Shown piece by piece: positions 22,782 through 39,700 of a stretch of DNA of 64,000 nucleotides (the stretch's first letter is position 1; each line of letters starts with the position of its first letter). The DNA comes from Candidatus Latescibacterota bacterium. GTDB lineage: Bacteria; Latescibacterota; UBA2968. A model generated the notes under the pieces. It had not been told where the DNA came from and searched no databases. It saw only the letters and a program-made list of their open reading frames with translations. Both the position numbers and the translations under genes were made by a program. The stretch spans positions 4,000,001-4,064,000 of the forward strand of contig OZ244960.1 of assembly GCA_965222605.1 (NCBI GenBank), in the 5' to 3' direction.

Positions 22782-24569
22782 TCACTTCTTACCTGTCTTT
22801 AAGTTTTCATCATTATATGTGACATAGAGAAATGCGGTACACATTTCATCGGTTGATTTTTCACCCCATCGCACCAGCCGGGGCGGATTGTTGGGGTTTC
22901 GGGGGTTGTCGGCAGAGTTGTCGTAAAAAGCTTCGAGCGCGATGCGGGTGCCGCGCGGGAGTGCAATGGGTGTTTTGTACACGTAGGTTTCTTGCCAGTT
23001 GAAGTCCCAGGGTTTGACCCATATTAAGGGTTTGTGCGTGCCGTCGGGATAGGTCGCGGTTATTTTCATTTCTGTGCCGAGCAGGTGCATGTGGGGCAAG
23101 ATGCCGAGCAGGTGCTGGTCGCGGGTGATGGTGATTGAGCCGGTTACTCTGTGTTGTTTGATGTTGGGCGGGATGAAAAGCAAACGGCTGTTGATGACTT
23201 CTTCTCTGAGCTGTTTTTGAACGGGTTTTTTTGCAAAGTAGATTCCCAGTCGAGAATGATCTTTTACGGCGCGACCAATTTTGTGGTAGTGGATCTGAAG
23301 AATGATGTCGCTGTTGGGCGGTAAATCGCGGCCTATGCCATCTGGAAGGACAAAGGGGGTGTTGCCGGGTGCCCAACCGCCCAGAGATTCGTAGATGGGT
23401 ACGCCAATGCCGCCAAAGCAAGGATATCCAGGCGAGGGTGCGTTTTCCTGTTGCAGACGCGCTTTGCCAGAGATATCGATGTACACGCTGACGTGGTGGA
23501 CGACTTCGCGTTCTCCAGGCAGTACTTCAATGGCCGATACGTAGTTGCCTGTGTCCTGTTTTGTGGGCAAGACAAAGCAGCGGTATTCGTCGCGGCCCGT
23601 GGCTTCGAGTGGATAGGGTGCTTCGGGTTCAAGGGTCAGGTCGGGCGTGCCCAGGGTCCAGCTTTTGGAAAATGCGATGGGTTCGGGGCGGTCTGCGGGA
23701 TTGCCCTGGGGCATGCCGCCGTTGACCCATTGCGCGAAGGTGTGGATTTCGGCGTCTGTGAGGCTGCGGGAATTTTTGAAGTCGCCGTATTCGGGACGCG
23801 CTTTCCAGGGTGGCATGATGCGAGCTTCAATGGAGTCGCGCATCTGATAGGCCCATGCGAGTACTTCTGTGTAGTCGAAAAAGGGCACGCGACCGATGCC
23901 GCCGGGGCGATGACAATTCTGGCAGCGGTTTTGCAGAAGGGGCAGGATATCGCGATAAAATGTTGGGGTCGAAGTGCCCGCCGCGGTTGTTGGCCGGGGT
24001 GTGCGTCTGATTTCACAGCCAAAACTGGGCAGGTTGGTGTTGTCGATTTCGCGGTTGGCGAGCAGTGCATCGAGGGCGTCCCACAAACCGCGCGAGGTCG
24101 TATCTTCGGGTATGCCCCAGCCGTTGTCGATTTCGCCCTTGTAGCGCAGGCGGCGTTGGGCGTCAAAGAGAAAGGCATGGGGGGTGTGTGTCGCGCCGAG
24201 GTGATCGGCGAGTTTGTTGTGCGGGTCGCGCAGGACAGCGAAGGGTACGGGGTTTTGGACGTAGTGTTTTTTGATGTCTTTGTCGGTTTCGTTAAAATTG
24301 GCATTTACAGATATCAGGTGTACGCCTCTGGGGGCATACTGATCGTGTATTTGTGTGCGGTGGATATCGTATTTTAGCGAGGCGGGGCAGACGACGGAGC
24401 TGAAGATGATGACGAGTGCGCGGTTCTGAGATAAATCACTGAGGGCAACGGGCGAGCCGTTGAGGTCGGCAAGGGTAAAATCATTGAGGGTATCGCCGAT
24501 CTGGAGGGGGGCTGCCCAGGGGTGAAGCGGGAGGGCGAGAAAGAGTGCGATGAAGAGAGGGCATTTCAT
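22782..24569 (-). CDS. Redoxin + c-type heme + copper type II monooxygenase-like fusion, exported
   Basis: AhpC/TSA fold with CPAS, ATHTP.AF, RY.G.ID; CQNCH; VVHH, QIHYH, HMH and DEMC motifs. Confidence 0.85.
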   Translation of the reverse strand: MKCPLFIALFLALPLHPWAAPLQIGDTLNDFTLADLNGSPVALSDLSQNRALVIIFSSVVCPASLKYDIHRTQIHDQYAPRGVHLISVNANFNETDKDIKKHYVQNPVPFAVLRDPHNKLADHLGATHTPHAFLFDAQRRLRYKGEIDNGWGIPEDTTSRGLWDALDALLANREIDNTNLPSFGCEIRRTPRPTTAAGTSTPTFYRDILPLLQNRCQNCHRPGGIGRVPFFDYTEVLAWAYQMRDSIEARIMPPWKARPEYGDFKNSRSLTDAEIHTFAQWVNGGMPQGNPADRPEPIAFSKSWTLGTPDLTLEPEAPYPLEATGRDEYRCFVLPTKQDTGNYVSAIEVLPGEREVVHHVSVYIDISGKARLQQENAPSPGYPCFGGIGVPIYESLGGWAPGNTPFVLPDGIGRDLPPNSDIILQIHYHKIGRAVKDHSRLGIYFAKKPVQKQLREEVINSRLLFIPPNIKQHRVTGSITITRDQHLLGILPHMHLLGTEMKITATYPDGTHKPLIWVKPWDFNWQETYVYKTPIALPRGTRIALEAFYDNSADNPRNPNNPPRLVRWGEKSTDEMCTAFLYVTYNDENLKTGKK

Positions 24570-24574
24570 GGTGA

Positions 24575-25294
24575 TCAGGTATTGCGTTTACGCAAGTAGT
24601 CGATGAGGAAGATGACGGTGATTAGTCCAAAAAATCCGGCGATTGATAGGGCGATATAGTGGCTTTCGTGTGGGAGCCGCCAGTATTGTATTATAGTAAA
24701 TATAAGGGTGGGGACAAAGAAGATAAGCGCGCCCATCAAGGCATATCCCGACTGTGTGGCGGGTTCGGGCTGAGGGGGCGTGCTTGGGGCGTGAGTCGTG
24801 GGCTGTTGCGGGGGTTGGGTCGGCTGAATGGTCGGGGGTGCCGCTTCGGGTGGTTTGACGCGGGCGAGCATTTCTATGACGCTTTTGCGATAGCTGTTGT
24901 CGGCAGAGGCATATACGCTCCAAAATGCCGCGATTTCTTCGGCACCCGTGCGGGTAAATTTCTTTTCGAGTGCGCGTTTTAGCTCAAGAGAAAGTTCGGC
25001 GGGTGCTTTTTTTTGATGTTTTCGAAGGTCGTCGAGAATATGCGTGAGGCTGGCGTCGTACCCGTGAATCCAGGGATAGGTGGCGTGTTGGAGCAATTTT
25101 TCATCGGAGTTTGCGCCGCCAAATTCACGGAGATATGCATCAATGAGTTTTTTTCGCCCGATTTTAGACCCTGCGCCGGGGAAGTGTTTTGCCCGCAATT
25201 TGCTGTCGCGTTGAAAGGGCAAATAGAGATGGTCGTGATCCGCTATTTCGAGGATGCGTTTGAATGCGTTGAGGAGTGTTTGGCGGTGGGACAT
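24575..25294 (-). CDS. Hypothetical protein, Pro/Gln linker and two C-terminal TM helices
   Basis: Open frame within a same-strand gene run; hydrophobic C-terminus. Confidence 0.7.
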   Translation of the reverse strand: MSHRQTLLNAFKRILEIADHDHLYLPFQRDSKLRAKHFPGAGSKIGRKKLIDAYLREFGGANSDEKLLQHATYPWIHGYDASLTHILDDLRKHQKKAPAELSLELKRALEKKFTRTGAEEIAAFWSVYASADNSYRKSVIEMLARVKPPEAAPPTIQPTQPPQQPTTHAPSTPPQPEPATQSGYALMGALIFFVPTLIFTIIQYWRLPHESHYIALSIAGFFGLITVIFLIDYLRKRNT

Positions 25295-25376
25295 GAAAAG
25301 CAACCACAGATGGACACGGATGAACACCGATGATCCCGCATGGGATTATATATGAAAGGAATGTATCCTGGGGTAT

Positions 25377-25460: not shown

Positions 25461-26762
25461 TTAGTTGATTGTTTTTCCAAAGTTCGAGACAAACATGAGA
25501 AAGTCGGGGAAATCTACTGTGCCGGATCCGTCGAGATCAAAGGTCGTATTGGCCGTGCCAAAGGCGCCTACGAACAAGAGGAAGTCCTGAAAGTCAATGG
25601 TACTCGAGCCATCGAAGTCGGTGCGTGGATCAGCGGGGATGAAGATGGCTGATCCGGTGATGGTCAGACTGATTGAGGCTTTTTCTGGGTCGTCTGAGAT
25701 TATGTCGATGGTACCGGTAATTGGTCCTTCGGCTGGTGGATTGAAAGTCACTGTGATATTCTGGGATTGGCCGGGTGGCACTGTAAGCGAGGTTTCTGAA
25801 AATGCAATGCCCGCGATGTTGGATTGGATGTCTGTGATGGTGAGCGGACCTGAGCCGCTATTTGTGATAGTGAATGTTGTTGTGACTTCCCGGCCCACTT
25901 GGATTTCACCGAGGCTCAAGTTTTCCTGAATTAGTGAAATGACCGGGAGTTGGGGTGCTTCAATGGTGAGATTGATAAAGGGGATTTCCAGGGTGCCAAC
26001 ACTTTGTTCGCCGTGTTGGAGGGTGATTTTACCCGAGAATGTGCCGGCCTGTGTTGGTGTCAGAGTGATTTGTACGGTTTTGCTTTCGCCGGGAGCTATG
26101 GTCAGTGTGGATGGCTCCATTGTGATGCCTTCGGGAGCCGAGTATCCGGTGATTTCGAGGGGTCCTGCGCCGGTGTTTTCGATCTTAAATTCTACGGTTT
26201 TGGACTGCCCTACTTCAAGGGTTCTGCCAAAGTAAAGCTCTCGTGGAAATAGGGCAATAACGGGCGTTTTGTTGAGAAGTGCGTCGATTTGCACGTTGAT
26301 CTGGGTATGAGAGCCGGGGGCGATTGCAGTGGTTTTAAGGCGCAGGATGCCTCCCTGGTCAATGACGAGGATATCTTCGTTACGGGTGCCGAGGTTTCTG
26401 GAGACGCCAGAGGCATTTGTGAGCATGGGCGTCGTTACCGTGGATCGTGTTATATAGGATTGGACTTGTGCGCGGTTGCCATCGTATCTGTCGAGTGTGA
26501 GGATCTGTACGCCGGCTTTGTCTTTGTTGGGTTGGTAAATATCTTTTTCGAAGTCGGGCCCTGCCCCTATGCAAGTTCCTCAGTTGTAGCCGACAAAAAA
26601 GAGGACGGAGACCGTGTTGTTCGAATGGCTGACGCCGTAAAACCTGCCATCGGTGGCCTGGAGTTGAAATTCGTTTATTTTTTCCCCAAGGTTGGACTGG
26701 GCAAAAGCGGTTGTGCATAAGCACAAAAATAGGGCGAGAGAGAAAAATCGCAGGTGTTTCAT
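25461..26762 (-). CDS. Exported UxxC redoxin + two Ig-like (ASH/choice-of-anchor D-like) domains + dockerin-like EF-hand pair; probable selenoprotein (TGA at 26582-26580)
   Basis: GGAGG RBS, signal peptide, VLFFVGYN-U-GTC, frame stays open and joins the 321-aa ORF 26426-25461; C-terminal DFDGSSTIDFQDFL..F / DLDGSGTVDFPDFL..F. Confidence 0.88.
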
Positions 26763-26914
26763 GGTGTTCCTCCATAAGGTGATTGCTGATTGCCGATAGC
26801 TAATATACTAAATCGCGTTCAAAATGTCACGGGGTTTGCGCTTGATTTTGGGGTTTGGTTTATCTACATTGTGGAAACGTTTCGGCTATTTCGGGGTTCC
26901 CATTTTTTTCTTTT

Positions 26915-28048
26915 ATGTCTTTATCTCTAAATGACTTTGAATCTGTGGTTCAGCGTGCGATCGCGCACCGCGATGGTGGCGATTTAGAAGCGGCAGTTGC
27001 GGGTTTTGATGCGGCGATTGCGGTGTGTGATAGCGATCCCGTTGTGTTTGTTCATCGCGGGATTACTTATGGACAACTGGGGCAGTTTGATGCGGCGATT
27101 GCGGATTTTGACCGCGCAATCGCTCTGGCGCCGAATGATCCATGGGTGTGGAGTAATCGCGCGATTGCCTGCGGGTTGATGGGGCAGTTTGATGCGGCGA
27201 TAGATAGTTTTGGAAAGGCTGTTGCGCTCGATCCAGAAGATACGCAGACACTTGCGAGTCGGGGAGAAACCCTGCGCGAGATGGGGCGGTTTGAGGAGGC
27301 ACTGGGGGATCTCAACCGGGTTTTGGCGTTGGATGCAGATTATTTTGGCGCGTTGATCAGCCGCGGGCATGTGTTGATGCAATTGGGGCAATTCGATGCG
27401 GCTGCGGCCGATTTTGACCGGGCGATTGCAGTGGGCAATGGGCATCCGGATGCGTTTGCCGGACGGGCGGAGGTCTATCGACAAATGGGTGAAGCTGAGG
27501 CTGCGATGGAGATGTTTGGGCAGGCACTCGAGGCGATGCCCGATCATCTGGGTGCATTGATTGGGCGGGGCGAGGTGCTGCGAGAGTGCGATCAATTGGA
27601 GGACGCGTTTTTGGATTTCGATCGCGCACTCATTATCGCACCTGATGACCCGGATTTGTTGTCCGCGCGGGGTGATATGTTGCGGCAATTGGGGCGAAGT
27701 GCCGAAGCAATACGCGATTTTACACGGGCGCTGGAGATTTTTCCCGATCATCTGTGGGCGCTTATGGGGCGAGGCGTTGCGTTGCGAATGGACAATGATC
27801 CCGAGGCGTCACTGGTCGATTTTGATCGGGCGGTGATGCTGCAGAACGGAGATGCGTGGATTTGGGCAAATCGCGGGGAGTCCCGAAGGATGCTGGGGCA
27901 GTATGAGGCAGCGGTTTCAGATTTTACGCGGGCGTTGGATATTGATCCGGAAAATGGATGGGCACGAGAACTTCGCGCGGAGACGTTTCGGCAAATGGGG
28001 CGATTTGCCGAGGCGGTTGAAGATATGAATCGGGCACGGGCGCAATGA
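26915..28048 (+). CDS. Cytoplasmic all-TPR protein (about 11 repeats)
   Basis: Regular 34-aa RG....LG....A..DF.RAI.L.P units. Confidence 0.9.
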   Translation: MSLSLNDFESVVQRAIAHRDGGDLEAAVAGFDAAIAVCDSDPVVFVHRGITYGQLGQFDAAIADFDRAIALAPNDPWVWSNRAIACGLMGQFDAAIDSFGKAVALDPEDTQTLASRGETLREMGRFEEALGDLNRVLALDADYFGALISRGHVLMQLGQFDAAAADFDRAIAVGNGHPDAFAGRAEVYRQMGEAEAAMEMFGQALEAMPDHLGALIGRGEVLRECDQLEDAFLDFDRALIIAPDDPDLLSARGDMLRQLGRSAEAIRDFTRALEIFPDHLWALMGRGVALRMDNDPEASLVDFDRAVMLQNGDAWIWANRGESRRMLGQYEAAVSDFTRALDIDPENGWARELRAETFRQMGRFAEAVEDMNRARAQ

Positions 28049-29055
28049 GCGAGTCTCATCATATTGTTATTGCAGATCGCACGGTTCCGTTTGAGGAGAC
28101 CATTGCACAGTTTGGAGAAGCACTGTCCAAAAAGTGTCGGTTTCAAACGCGCGCACGGCGATTTTACGATACGGTGTGGATCGCCGATTGTTATACGGAT
28201 TACGTGCAGTCGGCGCTGTTTCGCAAATACGAAGGGCCGTTGATGGAGGGTATTGCGCTTCGCACGATGGGCAAAGGGCTTTCCAAACAGCAGGTGCTGG
28301 CTGGGGCGATGGCAGAGGCGGTCGAGCGCATTTCGTTTTTTGACGCGCTGGCAAGCGGGCGGGAGACTCCGATTTATGAGTTGACTTCCGGTGTCGAGCT
28401 CGTGCTGACCGATATGAAGGCGTCGGATGTGCCACATTTGAATGATTCGGCAAATGGCGTCTCGGCGGGCAATACCGTGCTGGAGTGCGTGTTTCACGGT
28501 TTGCTGGAGATGCACGAGCACCTGGATGTGGGGAGGCATTTTTACTGGCCGGGATTGGAACATCGGCAATTTATCGATCCAAATTTGACGGGTTTTTTCC
28601 CTCGTGTCGCAGAGAAGATGCTGGCTGTGGCAGTGCCGGGGGAAAATGAGAAGGTGACGACGGTTCACGCGGTGGTGTGTCCCAAAGATTTGGGATCTCT
28701 GGTGCGTACGTGTACGCATTTGGATGGTCGCGTGGCGTTGCAGCGGGCGTTTAATGAGACTGTTCAGAGTCACAAAACGCGGTTTGTATCTGATTTGCAG
28801 ACTTTTGGTGCCGAGATTGCGCTGTGGGATTTGCCCAATCATTTTACGGATGATTTGATAACCGATATTCAGGTGGTGTTGAGCGGTATGAAATCTTCGG
28901 TTTATGTGCAAGATTGGACAGATCCAGAGATGCAAATTCCGGTGTTGCGACCATTTAGTTTAAAGACTGCAGAACACGAGCGGAACCACGCGATGATCGA
29001 GACGTATGTGCATCGCATTATGGTGGATTCGGGCAATTATATTGTGTGGACGTGA
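28045..29055 (+). CDS. Compact YcaO-like protein
   Basis: GKG.S....AGAMAEAVER, SANGVSAGN......HGLLEMHE, H.D..VALQRAFNETVQ, D.TDP...IPV.R. Confidence 0.8.
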   Translation: MSESHHIVIADRTVPFEETIAQFGEALSKKCRFQTRARRFYDTVWIADCYTDYVQSALFRKYEGPLMEGIALRTMGKGLSKQQVLAGAMAEAVERISFFDALASGRETPIYELTSGVELVLTDMKASDVPHLNDSANGVSAGNTVLECVFHGLLEMHEHLDVGRHFYWPGLEHRQFIDPNLTGFFPRVAEKMLAVAVPGENEKVTTVHAVVCPKDLGSLVRTCTHLDGRVALQRAFNETVQSHKTRFVSDLQTFGAEIALWDLPNHFTDDLITDIQVVLSGMKSSVYVQDWTDPEMQIPVLRPFSLKTAEHERNHAMIETYVHRIMVDSGNYIVWT

Positions 29056-36775: not shown

Positions 36776-39700
36776 ATGCAGAAATTACTACTTCGCAGAC
36801 GATCTGCCTATGCCTCGATTTTTGCAGTTACACTCGCCGTCCTATTGATTCAATCGTTTTCTCCTTCCTCACAGACCAGTAGTTTTTCTCTTTCTCTGGA
36901 TTTGGATGAGGCTGTGGGCGGTCAGGCCATGCACTCTCTCAATGTATCTCCCGATCAGGATGTTTCCATTCAGATTTTTGGTACAGATATCCAAAATGCG
37001 AGCGATCTTTCTGTTCGTATTGAATACGATGCCACTCAGGTTGTTTACGAAGGGTTTGATACAGGTGATGTGTTGCCCAATGTCCGGGTCCAGAAAGGGG
37101 ATTCAACTGCCGTTTCACGCACGCCGGGACAAGCGAGCTTTGTCCAGATCAACCTGGCGTCTTTGGGTGGCTCTGCAACAGTCAACAGCGGTCTGATGGG
37201 TACACTGCGTTTTTTGACCACGGATGCGTTTTTGGGCACAGAGATTCGGTTGGTGCGTGCTGAGCTTGGCCGGGGGGAACAATCTGAGGCAGTGCCTCTA
37301 TCCCTCAGTGTTGCCCTACGGGTCGCTGCAGCCTCTTCCCCAGACTTTGACGGGAGTGGGACTGTAGATTTTCCCGACTTTTTGTTTTTAGTAAGTGTTT
37401 TTGGATCTCGACTTAACGATGGAAAGTACGAGACAAAGTACGATCTGGATGGCAATGGCGAAATTGCATTTGATGACTTCTTGATCTTTGTCAGTAGCTT
37501 TGGCAAGTCTGTTGACACCATTGACCAACCTTACGCTACTAAGCGTGTTGCTACCTCTTCTGATTTTCTCAGCGTCTGTGATCGCACCCCGCAAGTGCGC
37601 GACGCGATAGTAACGGCTCTCGGTGCAACAGATTGTGGGAGTGTCACAGAACAAGACTTGTCTAATCTAACGAATCGATTAGCGATATATGGCAGTTCGG
37701 AGAGTTCTATTTCGGCTTTGAAAGTTGGAGATTTTTCGGGACTGTCAGAGTTAAGACGTCTGAGGTTAATAAACAACAGTTTAACAACGCTTGACAACAA
37801 TGTTTTTGTGGGAATGTCGAAGTTAAAGACTTTGGAGGTTAGTGGAGGCGATATTTCAGATATTCATGCAGGGGCGTTTGGAGGATTGGATAGTCTTTCG
37901 GCCTTGTCATTAGAGGATAATAATATAACGAGTCTTCAGGACAATACTTTTGAGCCTTTGACAAAACTTAGGATTTTGAGGTTGAATAGCAACGATATTA
38001 CAAGTGTTTCATCTTTGCCTTTGGATGATTTGTCGGGGGTGCTAGTTCTTGATTTGTATCTTGCGTCCAATAAGATTGCGAGTCTCAGTTCAAGAGATTT
38101 TGCCGACGTTTCATCAAATTTGATTTTTTTAGATTTGCAAGGGAATAAGCTTTCCGCGTTACCAGACAGTCTTTTTTATAATATGGTAAATCTGCTAAAA
38201 TTGGATTTTCGGAGTAATAGTGTTGATCCTCTGAATATGCGAGTAAGCCTTGAGAGAATCCAAAATTCAGATAGGACTTCTGATAAGTTTTTTGCGAAGG
38301 TTCATACAGGCGCACCTTTCGATCTTAATGTTCCCGTTACAGTTTCTGGCGGAACGCTGGACGTTGATAATAATGTTGTGACGATTTCTGCCGGGTCTAT
38401 GAGCAGTTCTGTCGTGACCGCGACCAGGATTGATGCGACAGCGGATAACGATATTACTGTAACACTCGGAGACGTTCAAATTTCAATGGGAGACATTCAA
38501 AATACAAGTGATAGAAGAAGAGGTCTTGCGTTTGAAAAGGTCTCCAATTCAATAACATTGTCGCCGGAAGTTGTCGCAGTTTTTGTATTTGAGCCGAGTG
38601 TTACCTGGGGTAATGAACAGGTTTCTTTTGTGAGTGCAGATGCGTTTGGTGTGGAGGAAAACAGTTCTAATGTTGGCACTGTGTCTGCAAGGATTTATCG
38701 GAGGCCGTCGGAGTTCAAAGATTTGGGGGATATAACGGGTTTAACGTCGGGTAAGGGGTATTTTGAGAATAATGAGTCTCTCGGAGATGGGAATCATGAG
38801 AAGTATTATCGTTTTGTTTTGACCCAACCGAAGGTGCTAAATATTGGCTTGAGGCAGTTGGATGTTGACACTGATTTGATATTGGAGGATGCAGACGGTA
38901 GTGAGTTGCCTCTCGGAACGTCGAACGATCCTTCCGATCCTTCCAAGAAAAGGATAATAGTTTCTTTATGTGAAGGGACGTACTACGCTCATGTGAAGGT
39001 TAAGGATTTAGGGGAGAATGTATTTAATTTCCGTTATGGGATAGTGCCGGGCAGTCCGGATGCTTCTGAAGTTTCTCGGTTAAGGGGTCGGTCTATCGGT
39101 GGTGCAGTATCTGGTTATACTGTGTCTGGCGGTTCAGATGGGGATAAATTTTCTATCTCTGAGAGTGGTTTATTGACGTTTAATGATGTACCGAATTATG
39201 AGGATCCGCTGGATGTGGCGAGTACTTCTCCGTTAAATGATGCGGGTAATAATGAATATGTTGTGGTAGTGACGGGGCGCGGTGAAAGTAGTTCAGGAAC
39301 GCAGTCTATTGTTGTGACTGTTTCGGATAAGGATGACGAGGCACCGGGTCAACCTGCTGTGCCGACCGTAGCAGAGGCGACGTTGACGACGCTGAAAGTG
39401 ACGTGGGAAGTTCCTGCGAATACGGGACCTGAGATCACGGACTACGATGTGCAGTATAAGGCGAGTGGTGAGAGCGAATTTACCGATGCGGAATACGATG
39501 GCACGGATTTGACTTTGACGCTTACGGGCTTGAAACCGGGTACGAGTTATGAGGTGCAGGTGCGTGCAGAGAATGATGAAGGCTCAGGTGCGTGGTCTGA
39601 TTCGGGTAGTGGGATGACCATTGAGAATCAGGCTCCGGTGTTCACGAGCAATGCGACATTCGAGGTGAAAGAAAATAACACAACGGTTGGCGCAGTGTCC

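Follow-up and report, generated by a model that had tools for sequence, protein, structure and literature searches.

A predicted exported selenoprotein with a UxxC redoxin head, immunoglobulin-like stalk and dockerin-fold tail in Candidatus Latescibacterota

A 64,000-nucleotide (nt) stretch of the genome of a Candidatus Latescibacterota bacterium (contig OZ244960.1, positions 4,000,001 to 4,064,000; termed the window below) carries on its minus strand two open reading frames (ORFs) of 60 amino acids (aa; 26580..26762) and 321 aa (25461..26426) that share one frame, raising the question of whether these are two genes or a single gene in which a TGA codon is read as selenocysteine (Sec, U). An earlier note on this DNA had proposed the latter, taking the two ORFs to be one frame broken only by a TGA, and this was confirmed: positions 26762..25461 form a single 433-codon frame running from the ATG at 26762 to the TAA at 25463-25461, with the TGA at 26582-26580 (codon 61) as its sole internal stop. 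The read-through product is 433 aa in length with the context VLFFVGYN-U-GTC (residues ...FFVGYN-U-GTCIGAGPDFEK across codon 61), and orthologues were found to have the same length and architecture. The best explanation of the whole, to which a probability of roughly 0.8 is assigned, is an exported 433-residue selenoprotein possessing a UxxC redoxin head, an immunoglobulin (Ig)-like stalk and a dockerin-fold tether. The core of the earlier reading is supported by the analysis, and the finding is considered essentially right.

The UGA at codon 61

The machinery for Sec incorporation was found to be complete in the genome from which the window derives (one contig of 6.34 Mb), with selA, selB, selD and tRNA-Sec all identified above their cut-offs. 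The genes selA (576 bits) and selB (387.7 bits) are adjacent, and tRNA-Sec (73.3 bits) is situated approximately 100 nt after selD (365 bits). The latter gene (G000:C1:3613020-3614142, plus strand) possesses an in-frame TGA of its own and itself encodes a selenoprotein (CGG-U-ASK).

A search for orthologues in 61 related genomes, with stops read through, identified exactly one TGA per orthologue in all twenty genomes of the same genus (63-83% identity) and also in the orthologues from four genomes of other genera (46-49% identity), with dozens of paralogues likewise containing one TGA. All 30 orthologue loci, twenty from the same genus and ten more distant, share the codon (26580..26582 here) at one column, within the motif G[YHWF]N-U-xxC; all twenty same-genus genes were checked by codon alignment. 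Twenty-seven further family members were obtained from 21 loci (twenty fetched regions and one locus of the window's own genome), and 22 of these members carried U at the TGA column. The other five contained no in-frame stop, and every one of them had Cys at this column (CAPC twice, CKYC, CPVC twice). It has to be held against these counts that the sequences are relatives and not independent. TGA was also found to terminate several genes of the family (e.g. L029, L031 and L033), and the codon has therefore not been reassigned.

Among the twenty same-genus genes, the ratio of non-synonymous to synonymous substitution rates (dN/dS) was 0.17 ahead of the TGA (codons 1-60) and 0.35 in codons 62-112, the segment from the TGA to the first downstream ATG that is absent from the annotated ORF, with values of 0.24 for the Ig-like region and 0.23 for the tail. 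Purifying selection acts on both sides of the TGA.

In public annotation the locus is represented as two genes, namely a 60-aa peptide ending at a true TGA and an independent 321-aa choice-of-anchor D protein starting from the ATG at 26426. Consistent with this, all 21 homologues found in a protein database of 5.8 billion clusters were 321-322 aa in length and comprised only the residues after the TGA, two of them, labelled Gemmatimonadetes bacterium, bearing the name choice-of-anchor D domain-containing protein, and the local RNA fold is unremarkable. However, such a uniform length is the expected output of a gene caller at a conserved TGA, a thioredoxin fold would be split at its active site, and the constraint on codons 62-112 lies outside the annotated ORF. 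Furthermore, reading of the sequence identified a Shine-Dalgarno sequence, GGAGGA (26768..26773, minus strand), 5 nt ahead of the ATG at 26762, and none was seen ahead of the ATG at 26426, with Cys replacing the TGA in the five fully open homologues. The existence of two separate genes is thus regarded as highly improbable.

A pseudogene or an assembly error, arising from a recent nonsense change or a miscalled TGY, would be a further explanation, and the same-genome paralogue at G000:C1:3769332 does appear damaged at its 5' end. Against this stand the TGA of all twenty same-genus orthologues and of 106 of the 113 family matches described below, the purifying selection on either side of it, and the sequences of other strains. 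Contigs of DNA runs from two other studies showed no difference at 26580-26582 and no indels, and no difference was found at the TGA in contigs of runs X3, X5 and X16. The variants in the two DNA runs comprised ten synonymous and seven non-synonymous changes in one and nine and seven in the other. One contig (26411-26727) of a metatranscriptomic library labelled sponge metagenome bridges the TGA unchanged, though it counts against the reading that contigs of RNA libraries show presence and not expression level and are no proof of transcription. Record 3 of RNA run X15 (26438-26610) reaches only 28 nt past the TGA and was not counted as bridging, and where X15 and X16 leave the gene uncovered, they carry no information. 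A pseudogene or error has, on this evidence, a negligible probability, lower still than that of two genes.

Conservation, selection and contigs from other strains in combination exclude an error in sequencing, a nonsense mutation of recent origin and the presence of two genes. The three checks that the earlier note had put forward, namely U or Cys at the TGA column of homologues, Sec machinery in the genome and the absence of TGY at the codon in other sequencing data, gave no result that refuted it. The gene at 26762..25461 is almost certainly that of a real selenoprotein, with the UGA at codon 61 predicted to be decoded by the genome's own SelA, SelB, SelD and tRNA-Sec.

Hairpins downstream of the UGA

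Bacterial selenocysteine insertion sequence (SECIS) elements are modelled in PMC13188914 as a stem of at least 4 bp with an apical loop of 3-9 nt that has a G in its first two positions, a spacing of 16-37 nt between UGA and loop, and a minimum free energy (MFE) of -7.5 kcal/mol or better; the same paper describes a subset of real bacterial SECIS elements that fail the constraints of the model. The earlier note had drawn attention to a stem CUUGC-AUAGGG-GCAGG following the UGA and had remarked that it sits closer than a typical SECIS. This near stem (26560..26575, minus strand) does exist, is present in the MFE fold and in an RNAalifold consensus, and is indeed close, and it is treated here as an alternative structure. 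With a spacing of 9 nt from the UGA and a loop starting with AU, and so no G in its first two positions, it fails two of the criteria of the model and for this reason is probably not the SECIS.

The best SECIS candidate of this copy is a weak hairpin, GGGC-AGG-GCCC (26556..26566, minus strand), whose loop begins 17 nt after the UGA. Its spacing, AGG loop and 4-bp stem fit the model, with its energy (-6.2 kcal/mol by RNAfold, -4.6 by evaluation of the hairpin) lying above the -7.5 threshold. In 19 of the 20 same-genus genes the corresponding place, with a footprint of 26549-26569 here, holds a hairpin of 6-9 bp with energies of -9.1 to -10.7 kcal/mol. This spaced hairpin has the form UAGGGGCGG-GUC-CCGCCUUUG or a close variant of it, with a spacing of 16-19 nt, and overlaps the near stem on its 3' side. 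More distant orthologues were found to possess hairpins at the same place in shifted registers, with loops of GGUC, CGGG, CGGGU or AGG, and the selD gene of the window's genome has the hairpin AUCCAGC-GGU-GCUGGAU, whose GGU loop lies 20 nt beyond the UGA of that gene.

Hairpins were surveyed by a strict perfect-stem test, with 20,894 codon positions elsewhere in the genes as background. Those that comply with the model (a spacing of 16-37 nt and a G among the first two nucleotides of the loop) and reach -7.5 kcal/mol or better were identified in 32 of the 52 Sec genes and in none of the five Cys forms, compared with 3.3% of the background; at -6 or better the count was 41 of 52. Hairpins of the near type (spacing 5-12 nt) reached -7.5 or better in 16 of the 52 Sec genes and one of the five Cys forms (background 1.9%), and -6 or better in 20 of the 52. 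Codons 64-72 were also found to have the second-lowest synonymous codon diversity among 48 nine-codon windows. These results suggest, with somewhat better than even confidence, that the spaced hairpin is the SECIS of the family.

Several observations at the RNA level weigh against the reading as a whole. The 101-nt fold around the UGA is no more stable than its shuffles (z -0.02, with 91 of 200 shuffles at least as good), and a search of the whole window against Rfam at gathering thresholds gave no matches. The spaced hairpin of this copy is the weakest of the twenty same-genus genes and misses the -7.5 threshold. The region of the hairpin encodes a conserved G-A-G-P, so that its conservation partly reflects constraint on the protein, and a similar hairpin (GGGGC-AGG-GCCCU, -6.2 kcal/mol) was found in the Cys homologue L057. 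When 25 unique orthologue sequences are folded jointly by RNAalifold, the consensus is furthermore the near stem and not the spaced hairpin, a preference that arises because conserved codons fix the register of the former. What exceeds chance at this locus is the conservation of the TGA, not the stem.

That consensus in a fixed register is also the first argument for supposing that the near stem (26575-26560), or its 9-bp extension found in relatives, is the functional SECIS, belonging to an unusually close-set class. It is the strongest local hairpin of this copy (-9.7 kcal/mol in a 51-nt fold), its type exceeds the background in the Sec genes of the survey, and some bacterial SECIS elements lie outside the model (PMC13188914). 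However, its spacing and loop do not conform, an equally strong form (-9.7) occurs in one of the five Cys forms, so that it can arise from the xxC...GAG codons alone, and the spaced hairpin is both commoner in Sec genes and absent at that strength from Cys forms. In the mRNA channel of the ribosome, moreover, a stem starting immediately after the A-site codon has to melt during decoding. A close-set SECIS is for these reasons judged unlikely.

Somewhat less likely again is that Sec is real in the relatives and is being lost from this copy, through a decayed SECIS, inefficient read-through or a course towards loss or a Cys form. Three changes from the genus consensus (GCG>GCA, GGU>GGG and GCC>GAC) could represent decay of the proposed SECIS, and they accompany the low energy of its hairpin (-4.6 against -9.1 to -10.7 kcal/mol). 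Nevertheless, the frame is intact, and the hairpin sequence is unchanged in the close strains of two other studies, for which the stretch 26531-26695 has no listed differences and whose variants elsewhere are mostly synonymous. In addition, L051, an orthologue from another genus, has the same GGC-AGG-GCC apex on a longer stem, and failure to satisfy the model is known for some real bacterial SECIS elements (PMC13188914). This copy may be less efficiently decoded, or may rely on the near stem, while the family's spaced hairpin remains the favoured SECIS.

Architecture and proposed function

The N-terminal part of the protein was identified as a thioredoxin-fold redoxin domain of the AhpC/TSA family, ResA/TlpA-like, at about residues 23-165 (26268..26696, minus strand). 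Pfam AhpC-TSA matched residues 26-141 with 27.6 bits for the whole protein and 30.5 bits for the domain alone (cut-off 26), and the five paralogues tested gave 34.9-51 bits. The nearest solved sequence is PDB 2LS5 (E 1.8e-6), whose WCGVC aligns with NUGTC so that its first Cys corresponds to U61. An AlphaFold2 (AF2) model of the full-length protein, derived from a 31-sequence alignment, had a mean pLDDT (predicted local distance difference test) of 90.4 and placed U61 directly before helix 62-79, with values above 90 there. Foldseek comparison of the head gave 2LS5 (TMt 0.79), 3KCM (0.82), ResA 1SU9_B (0.82, root mean square deviation 2.3) and 3C71 (0.79). The U-G-T-C motif comprises residues 61-64 (26571..26582, minus strand), and both position 61 (C or U) and C64 were invariant in the 31-sequence alignment. 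The placing of the TGA at the first Cys position of the CxxC of a thioredoxin fold, as claimed in the earlier note, agrees with both the alignment to 2LS5 and the model. This modelling strongly supports U61 and C64 as a UxxC redox pair placed where helix 1 of a ResA/TlpA-like fold begins.

A predicted Sec-type (general secretory) signal peptide precedes this domain at residues 1-21 (26700..26762, minus strand), with K2, R5, a hydrophobic core and A-F-A followed by Q. Aligned homologues also start with a hydrophobic N-terminus, and the signal region has low pLDDT in the model. Following the redoxin domain, two Ig-like domains were identified at about residues 168-262 (25977..26261, minus strand) and 273-373 (25644..25946, minus strand). 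The choice-of-anchor D model (NF012200, choice_anch_D) matched in two stretches with 110.7 bits (cut-off 45), HYDIN_VesB_CFA65-like_Ig, DUF1573 and ASH each also matched in two stretches (for the second domain, HYDIN_VesB_CFA65-like_Ig at 273-370 and DUF1573 at 277-371), and for the first domain the model shows the strands of a beta-sandwich. Foldseek related the second domain to ciliary ASH/HYDIN-type domains and to 2QSV. The two Ig-like domains of the earlier note are therefore upheld by family matches and structure alike.

The last approximately 56 residues (25464..25631, minus strand) consist of two repeats of a calcium-binding loop and helix (DFDGSSTIDFQDFLLFVGAF, DLDGSGTVDFPDFLMFVSNF). 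This tail passes EF-hand_1 (30.8 bits against a cut-off of 25.4), and an AF2 model of the last 62 aa alone had a pLDDT of 96.1. Its best Foldseek match was 2Y3N_B (TMq 0.78, E 4.7e-4), and the first eleven matches listed were dockerin modules or dockerin-bearing chains of cohesin-dockerin entries. A dockerin fold is strongly supported for the tail on the basis of these models; with regard to the dockerin-like pair proposed earlier, it is the fold that holds, and the sequence does not reach the Pfam or NCBIfam dockerin cut-offs.

To the objections already raised have to be added those at the level of the protein. The AhpC-TSA match of this copy is only just above its cut-off (27.6 against 26), and the NCBIfam ResA model scored 17.8 bits against a cut-off of 170; the redoxin head resembles ResA and is not a ResA orthologue. 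The tail scored below the cut-offs of Dockerin_1 (14.2 against 22.9) and dockerin_GC (22.6 against 29), and the signal peptide was assigned by eye.

In the mechanism proposed, SelB would be recruited by a short GC-rich hairpin with a G-containing loop 16-19 nt after the UGA, here GGGC-AGG-GCCC, and the protein would be exported by means of its cleavable signal peptide. Its U61 selenol would then attack disulfides of substrates (or peroxides) in the cell envelope, and C64 would resolve the reaction through a U61-C64 selenenylsulfide, making the protein a thiol-disulfide oxidoreductase. The two choice-of-anchor D domains would serve as a stalk, with the dockerin-fold module binding calcium and tethering the enzyme to a cohesin-bearing protein of the envelope.

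Sec is a good peroxidatic residue, and the selenol might instead act as a peroxidase, in a detoxification at the envelope like that by glutathione peroxidase or peroxiredoxin, or as a ligand for a metal or metalloid. The Pfam family is that of AhpC/TSA, and a second AhpC/TSA redoxin, fused to copper monooxygenase domains, is encoded two genes downstream. On the other hand, the closest structures are the disulfide reductases or isomerases ResA and 2LS5, and the second Cys is invariant at UxxC spacing. The peroxiredoxin motif, quoted in PMC13188914 as PxxxTxxC/U, was not found: L-F-F-V-G-Y-N precedes U61 and lacks a Pro at position -7 as well as a Thr or Ser at -3, and a peroxiredoxin proper was rejected because PxxxT/SxxC is missing. 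Chemistry other than thiol-disulfide exchange is considered a minority possibility, though the likeliest of the alternatives weighed here.

Family, docking context and known systems

An even sample of 151 genomes of the phylum was surveyed for the family (E 1e-10 or better, with the TGA tallies counted by hand from the rows). Matches were found in 77 genomes, all in four families of one class, and none of the 36 sampled genomes of the other ten families gave a match. Among the 113 matches, 106 possessed exactly one TGA and no other stop, four were free of stops and three had other combinations of stops. Judged from these sequences the family is confined, among the genomes searched, to one bacterial class, with predicted Sec forms far outnumbering Cys forms.

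The same redoxin head was also found on other bodies, including five Ig-like domains, cadherin-like or Big_9 domains and an 1118-aa leucine-rich-repeat (LRR) protein. This last protein (L075, G009:C1:4826807-4830160) has the UxxC head, a dockerin-like pair in mid-protein, a long LRR array (LRR_8, 211 bits) and a HEIGH motif within its C-terminal region. In class-level relatives an FlgD_ig tail replaces the dockerin-like tail, and one of two such relatives also comes near a type IX sorting domain (Por_Secre_tail, 21.1 against a cut-off of 27, and thus below it). Sec and Cys forms occur in tandem at one locus each in L059, L060 and L061 (genomes G054, G050 and G042). The sole paralogue in the window's own genome (L025, G000:C1:3769332-3770576, plus strand) has the motif GHT-U-PFC, two Ig-like domains and a dockerin-like tail. 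Unlike its relatives, it contains a TAA and two more TGA codons just upstream of the redoxin domain and has no in-frame signal peptide, and it is possibly a damaged copy.

As every database homologue found is cut at the Sec codon, this whole Sec-dominated family is invisible in protein databases. This represents a systematic gap in annotation, where entries are truncated at the Sec codon and named only for their Ig-like domain. The natural pairs of Sec and Cys forms, some of them in tandem, provide material for asking why Sec is retained.

With regard to docking, a motif scan found 37 ORFs of this genome to end in the same dockerin-like calcium-loop and helix motif, partly in tandem clusters (e.g. 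G000:C1 3461772-3470029 and 944818-948946), and this organism seems to use the tag as a general address at the C-terminus. A search of the whole genome identified Cohesin (PF00963) above cut-off in four ORFs. The cohesin-like modules include that of P0023 and those at G000:C1:2633725, 2629740 and 1277270. An hmmscan of three of these (that at 1277270 was left out) identified a type IX secretion C-terminal domain in two of the four, as well as in an adjacent 684-aa ORF, and Cohesin with FlgD_ig in a third, the 268-aa P0023; a homologue of SprA is also present in the genome. A complex prediction for the cohesin module of P0023 (residues 22-178) with the tail of the selenoprotein (372-433) gave a score of 0.02 and a mark of 0.32, which is no evidence either way. 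From these sequence features a cohesin-dockerin display system in this organism is plausible, as is display of the selenoprotein at the surface or on a scaffold. A further difficulty is that the only targeting element on the protein is its N-terminal signal peptide, whereas the candidate cohesins are predicted to be type-IX-anchored beyond the outer membrane.

The 268-aa cohesin protein (G000:C1:2787081-2787884, minus strand, with copies at 6190360-6191163 and 85727-86530) has a signal peptide, a cohesin match of 24.3 bits and an FlgD_ig/type IX-like tail. Its three copies are 92-95% identical, and with 81-96% identity across all twenty genomes of the genus it is far more conserved than the selenoprotein (63-83%). 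Within the window, a weak cohesin-like match (36947-37213, plus strand; G000:C1:4036947-4037213) of 19.1 bits, below cut-off, was found in a 2942-aa open frame approximately 10 kb from the selenoprotein gene. Other dockerin-tagged ORFs with an upstream in-frame TGA, ahead of which the frame is open, were noted at G000:C1:784603 and 3462685 (...ATLRF-TGA-GS[CY]), and were judged not to encode Sec; their TGA was taken as a true stop because inspection of the 650-aa read-through revealed an upstream membrane-protein gene ending in Phe. Two further dockerin-tagged places preceded by a TGA were flagged, at 3455916 and 6000541.

A wider proposal is that the family represents lineage-wide cell-surface selenoenzymes of a host-associated class, in which exchangeable Sec-redoxin heads on Ig-like stalks would be held outside the outer membrane either through a type IX tail or through a dockerin docked onto type-IX-anchored cohesins. 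This is rather unlikely on present evidence. If true, it would amount to a non-cellulosomal cohesin-dockerin display system with redox selenoproteins as cargo and would give extracellular selenium chemistry a part in the dealings of these bacteria with their surroundings.

Upstream of the selenoprotein gene, a promoter-like site GTGACA-17-TATATT was identified (26802..26830, minus strand; 10 of 12 matches). It is considered weak because such sites are no commoner than in shuffled sequence (two found against 1.3 expected). A divergent gene for a 397-aa tetratricopeptide repeat (TPR) protein (26855-28048, plus strand) lies upstream. The 250-aa ORF downstream (24575-25327, minus strand) belongs to no family of Pfam or NCBIfam; it contains a Pro-rich linker, ends in a hydrophobic C-terminus and would be a membrane protein. 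Synteny of both genes with that of the selenoprotein extends to most same-genus loci and several other genera, the 250-aa protein being 58-60% identical in L049 and L050 and the TPR protein about 50% identical in L049 and L051. Two genes downstream, a 595-aa ORF (22782-24569, minus strand) starts with a hydrophobic leader and combines an AhpC/TSA redoxin (48.2 bits), whose active-site region reads VVCPAS and so has the form CxxS, with copper type II ascorbate-dependent monooxygenase domains. Of the latter, the C-terminal domain scored 31.1 bits (cut-off 23) and the N-terminal domain 25.8 bits, below its cut-off of 30. The ORF is a second exported redoxin fusion near the selenoprotein gene. A 336-aa ORF (28045-29055, plus strand) gave sub-threshold matches of YcaO type (36.9 against 365 and 34.8 against 75.65 bits).

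Literature searches, supplements aside, found no combination of a UxxC redoxin with Ig-like domains and a dockerin fold, nor a family this large and this dominated by Sec, in line with the statement of the earlier note that the architecture was not recognised as described. Its statement that UxxC redoxins are a recognised class of selenoprotein is likewise correct, since they are listed in PMC13188914 and PMC9312934. Peroxiredoxin-like thiol:disulfide oxidoreductase selenoproteins (PF00578, UxxC/UxxU) are there 'predicted with high confidence', and the tables of the same papers include thiol-disulfide isomerase-like or TlpA-family selenoproteins (cd02966, UxxC and UGC forms). The catalytic module of the protein described here is therefore of a known kind, the UxxC PF00578 and TlpA-like selenoproteins being established predicted families in these sources. 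With the first of these it shares AhpC-TSA above cut-off, UxxC with Sec in first place and the existence of Cys homologues; as far as a comparison by description goes, it differs in that those selenoproteins are listed by their redoxin domain only, whereas here this domain heads a predicted exported protein of 433 aa that also has Ig-like and dockerin-fold parts. Part of the present family may lie behind a family name already listed, as the listed families were compared by description only. Similar to TlpA-family selenoproteins, it has a TlpA/ResA-like fold (TMt 0.79-0.82), a predicted extracytoplasmic location and UxxC, but the ResA model scores 17.8 against 170 and N precedes the motif in place of the W of 2LS5.

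ResA (1SU9) and 2LS5, a putative protein disulfide isomerase from Bacteroides thetaiotaomicron, are the closest solved folds, the latter also being the closest solved sequence, and their CxxC aligns with UxxC. They are, however, single-domain Cys proteins with an N-terminal membrane or lipid anchor, whereas the protein of the window would possess Sec and a long C-terminal stalk and anchor. The OS_HP2/DUF1573 selenoproteins (NF041425; PF07610 with UGC) are comparable in their Ig-like domains, which here match OS_HP2_seleno with 62.6 bits and DUF1573 with 92.9 bits; the former score is below its cut-off of 100, and the predicted Sec is here in the redoxin head and not in an Ig-like domain. The dockerins of cohesin-dockerin systems (2Y3N_B, 2OZN_B) share with the tail a duplicated calcium loop and helix (TMq 0.78), and cohesin-like modules occur in the genome. 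In contrast to them, the tail lies below the cut-offs of Dockerin_1 and dockerin_GC, the cargo would be a redox selenoenzyme where theirs is a glycoside hydrolase, and the candidate cohesin proteins have type IX tails. UxxC redoxin selenoproteins are otherwise listed as enzymes of a single domain, and the protein would give this class a modular architecture that is exported and bears a dockerin. Should docking and display at the surface prove real, it would bring selenocysteine chemistry to the surface of the bacterium.

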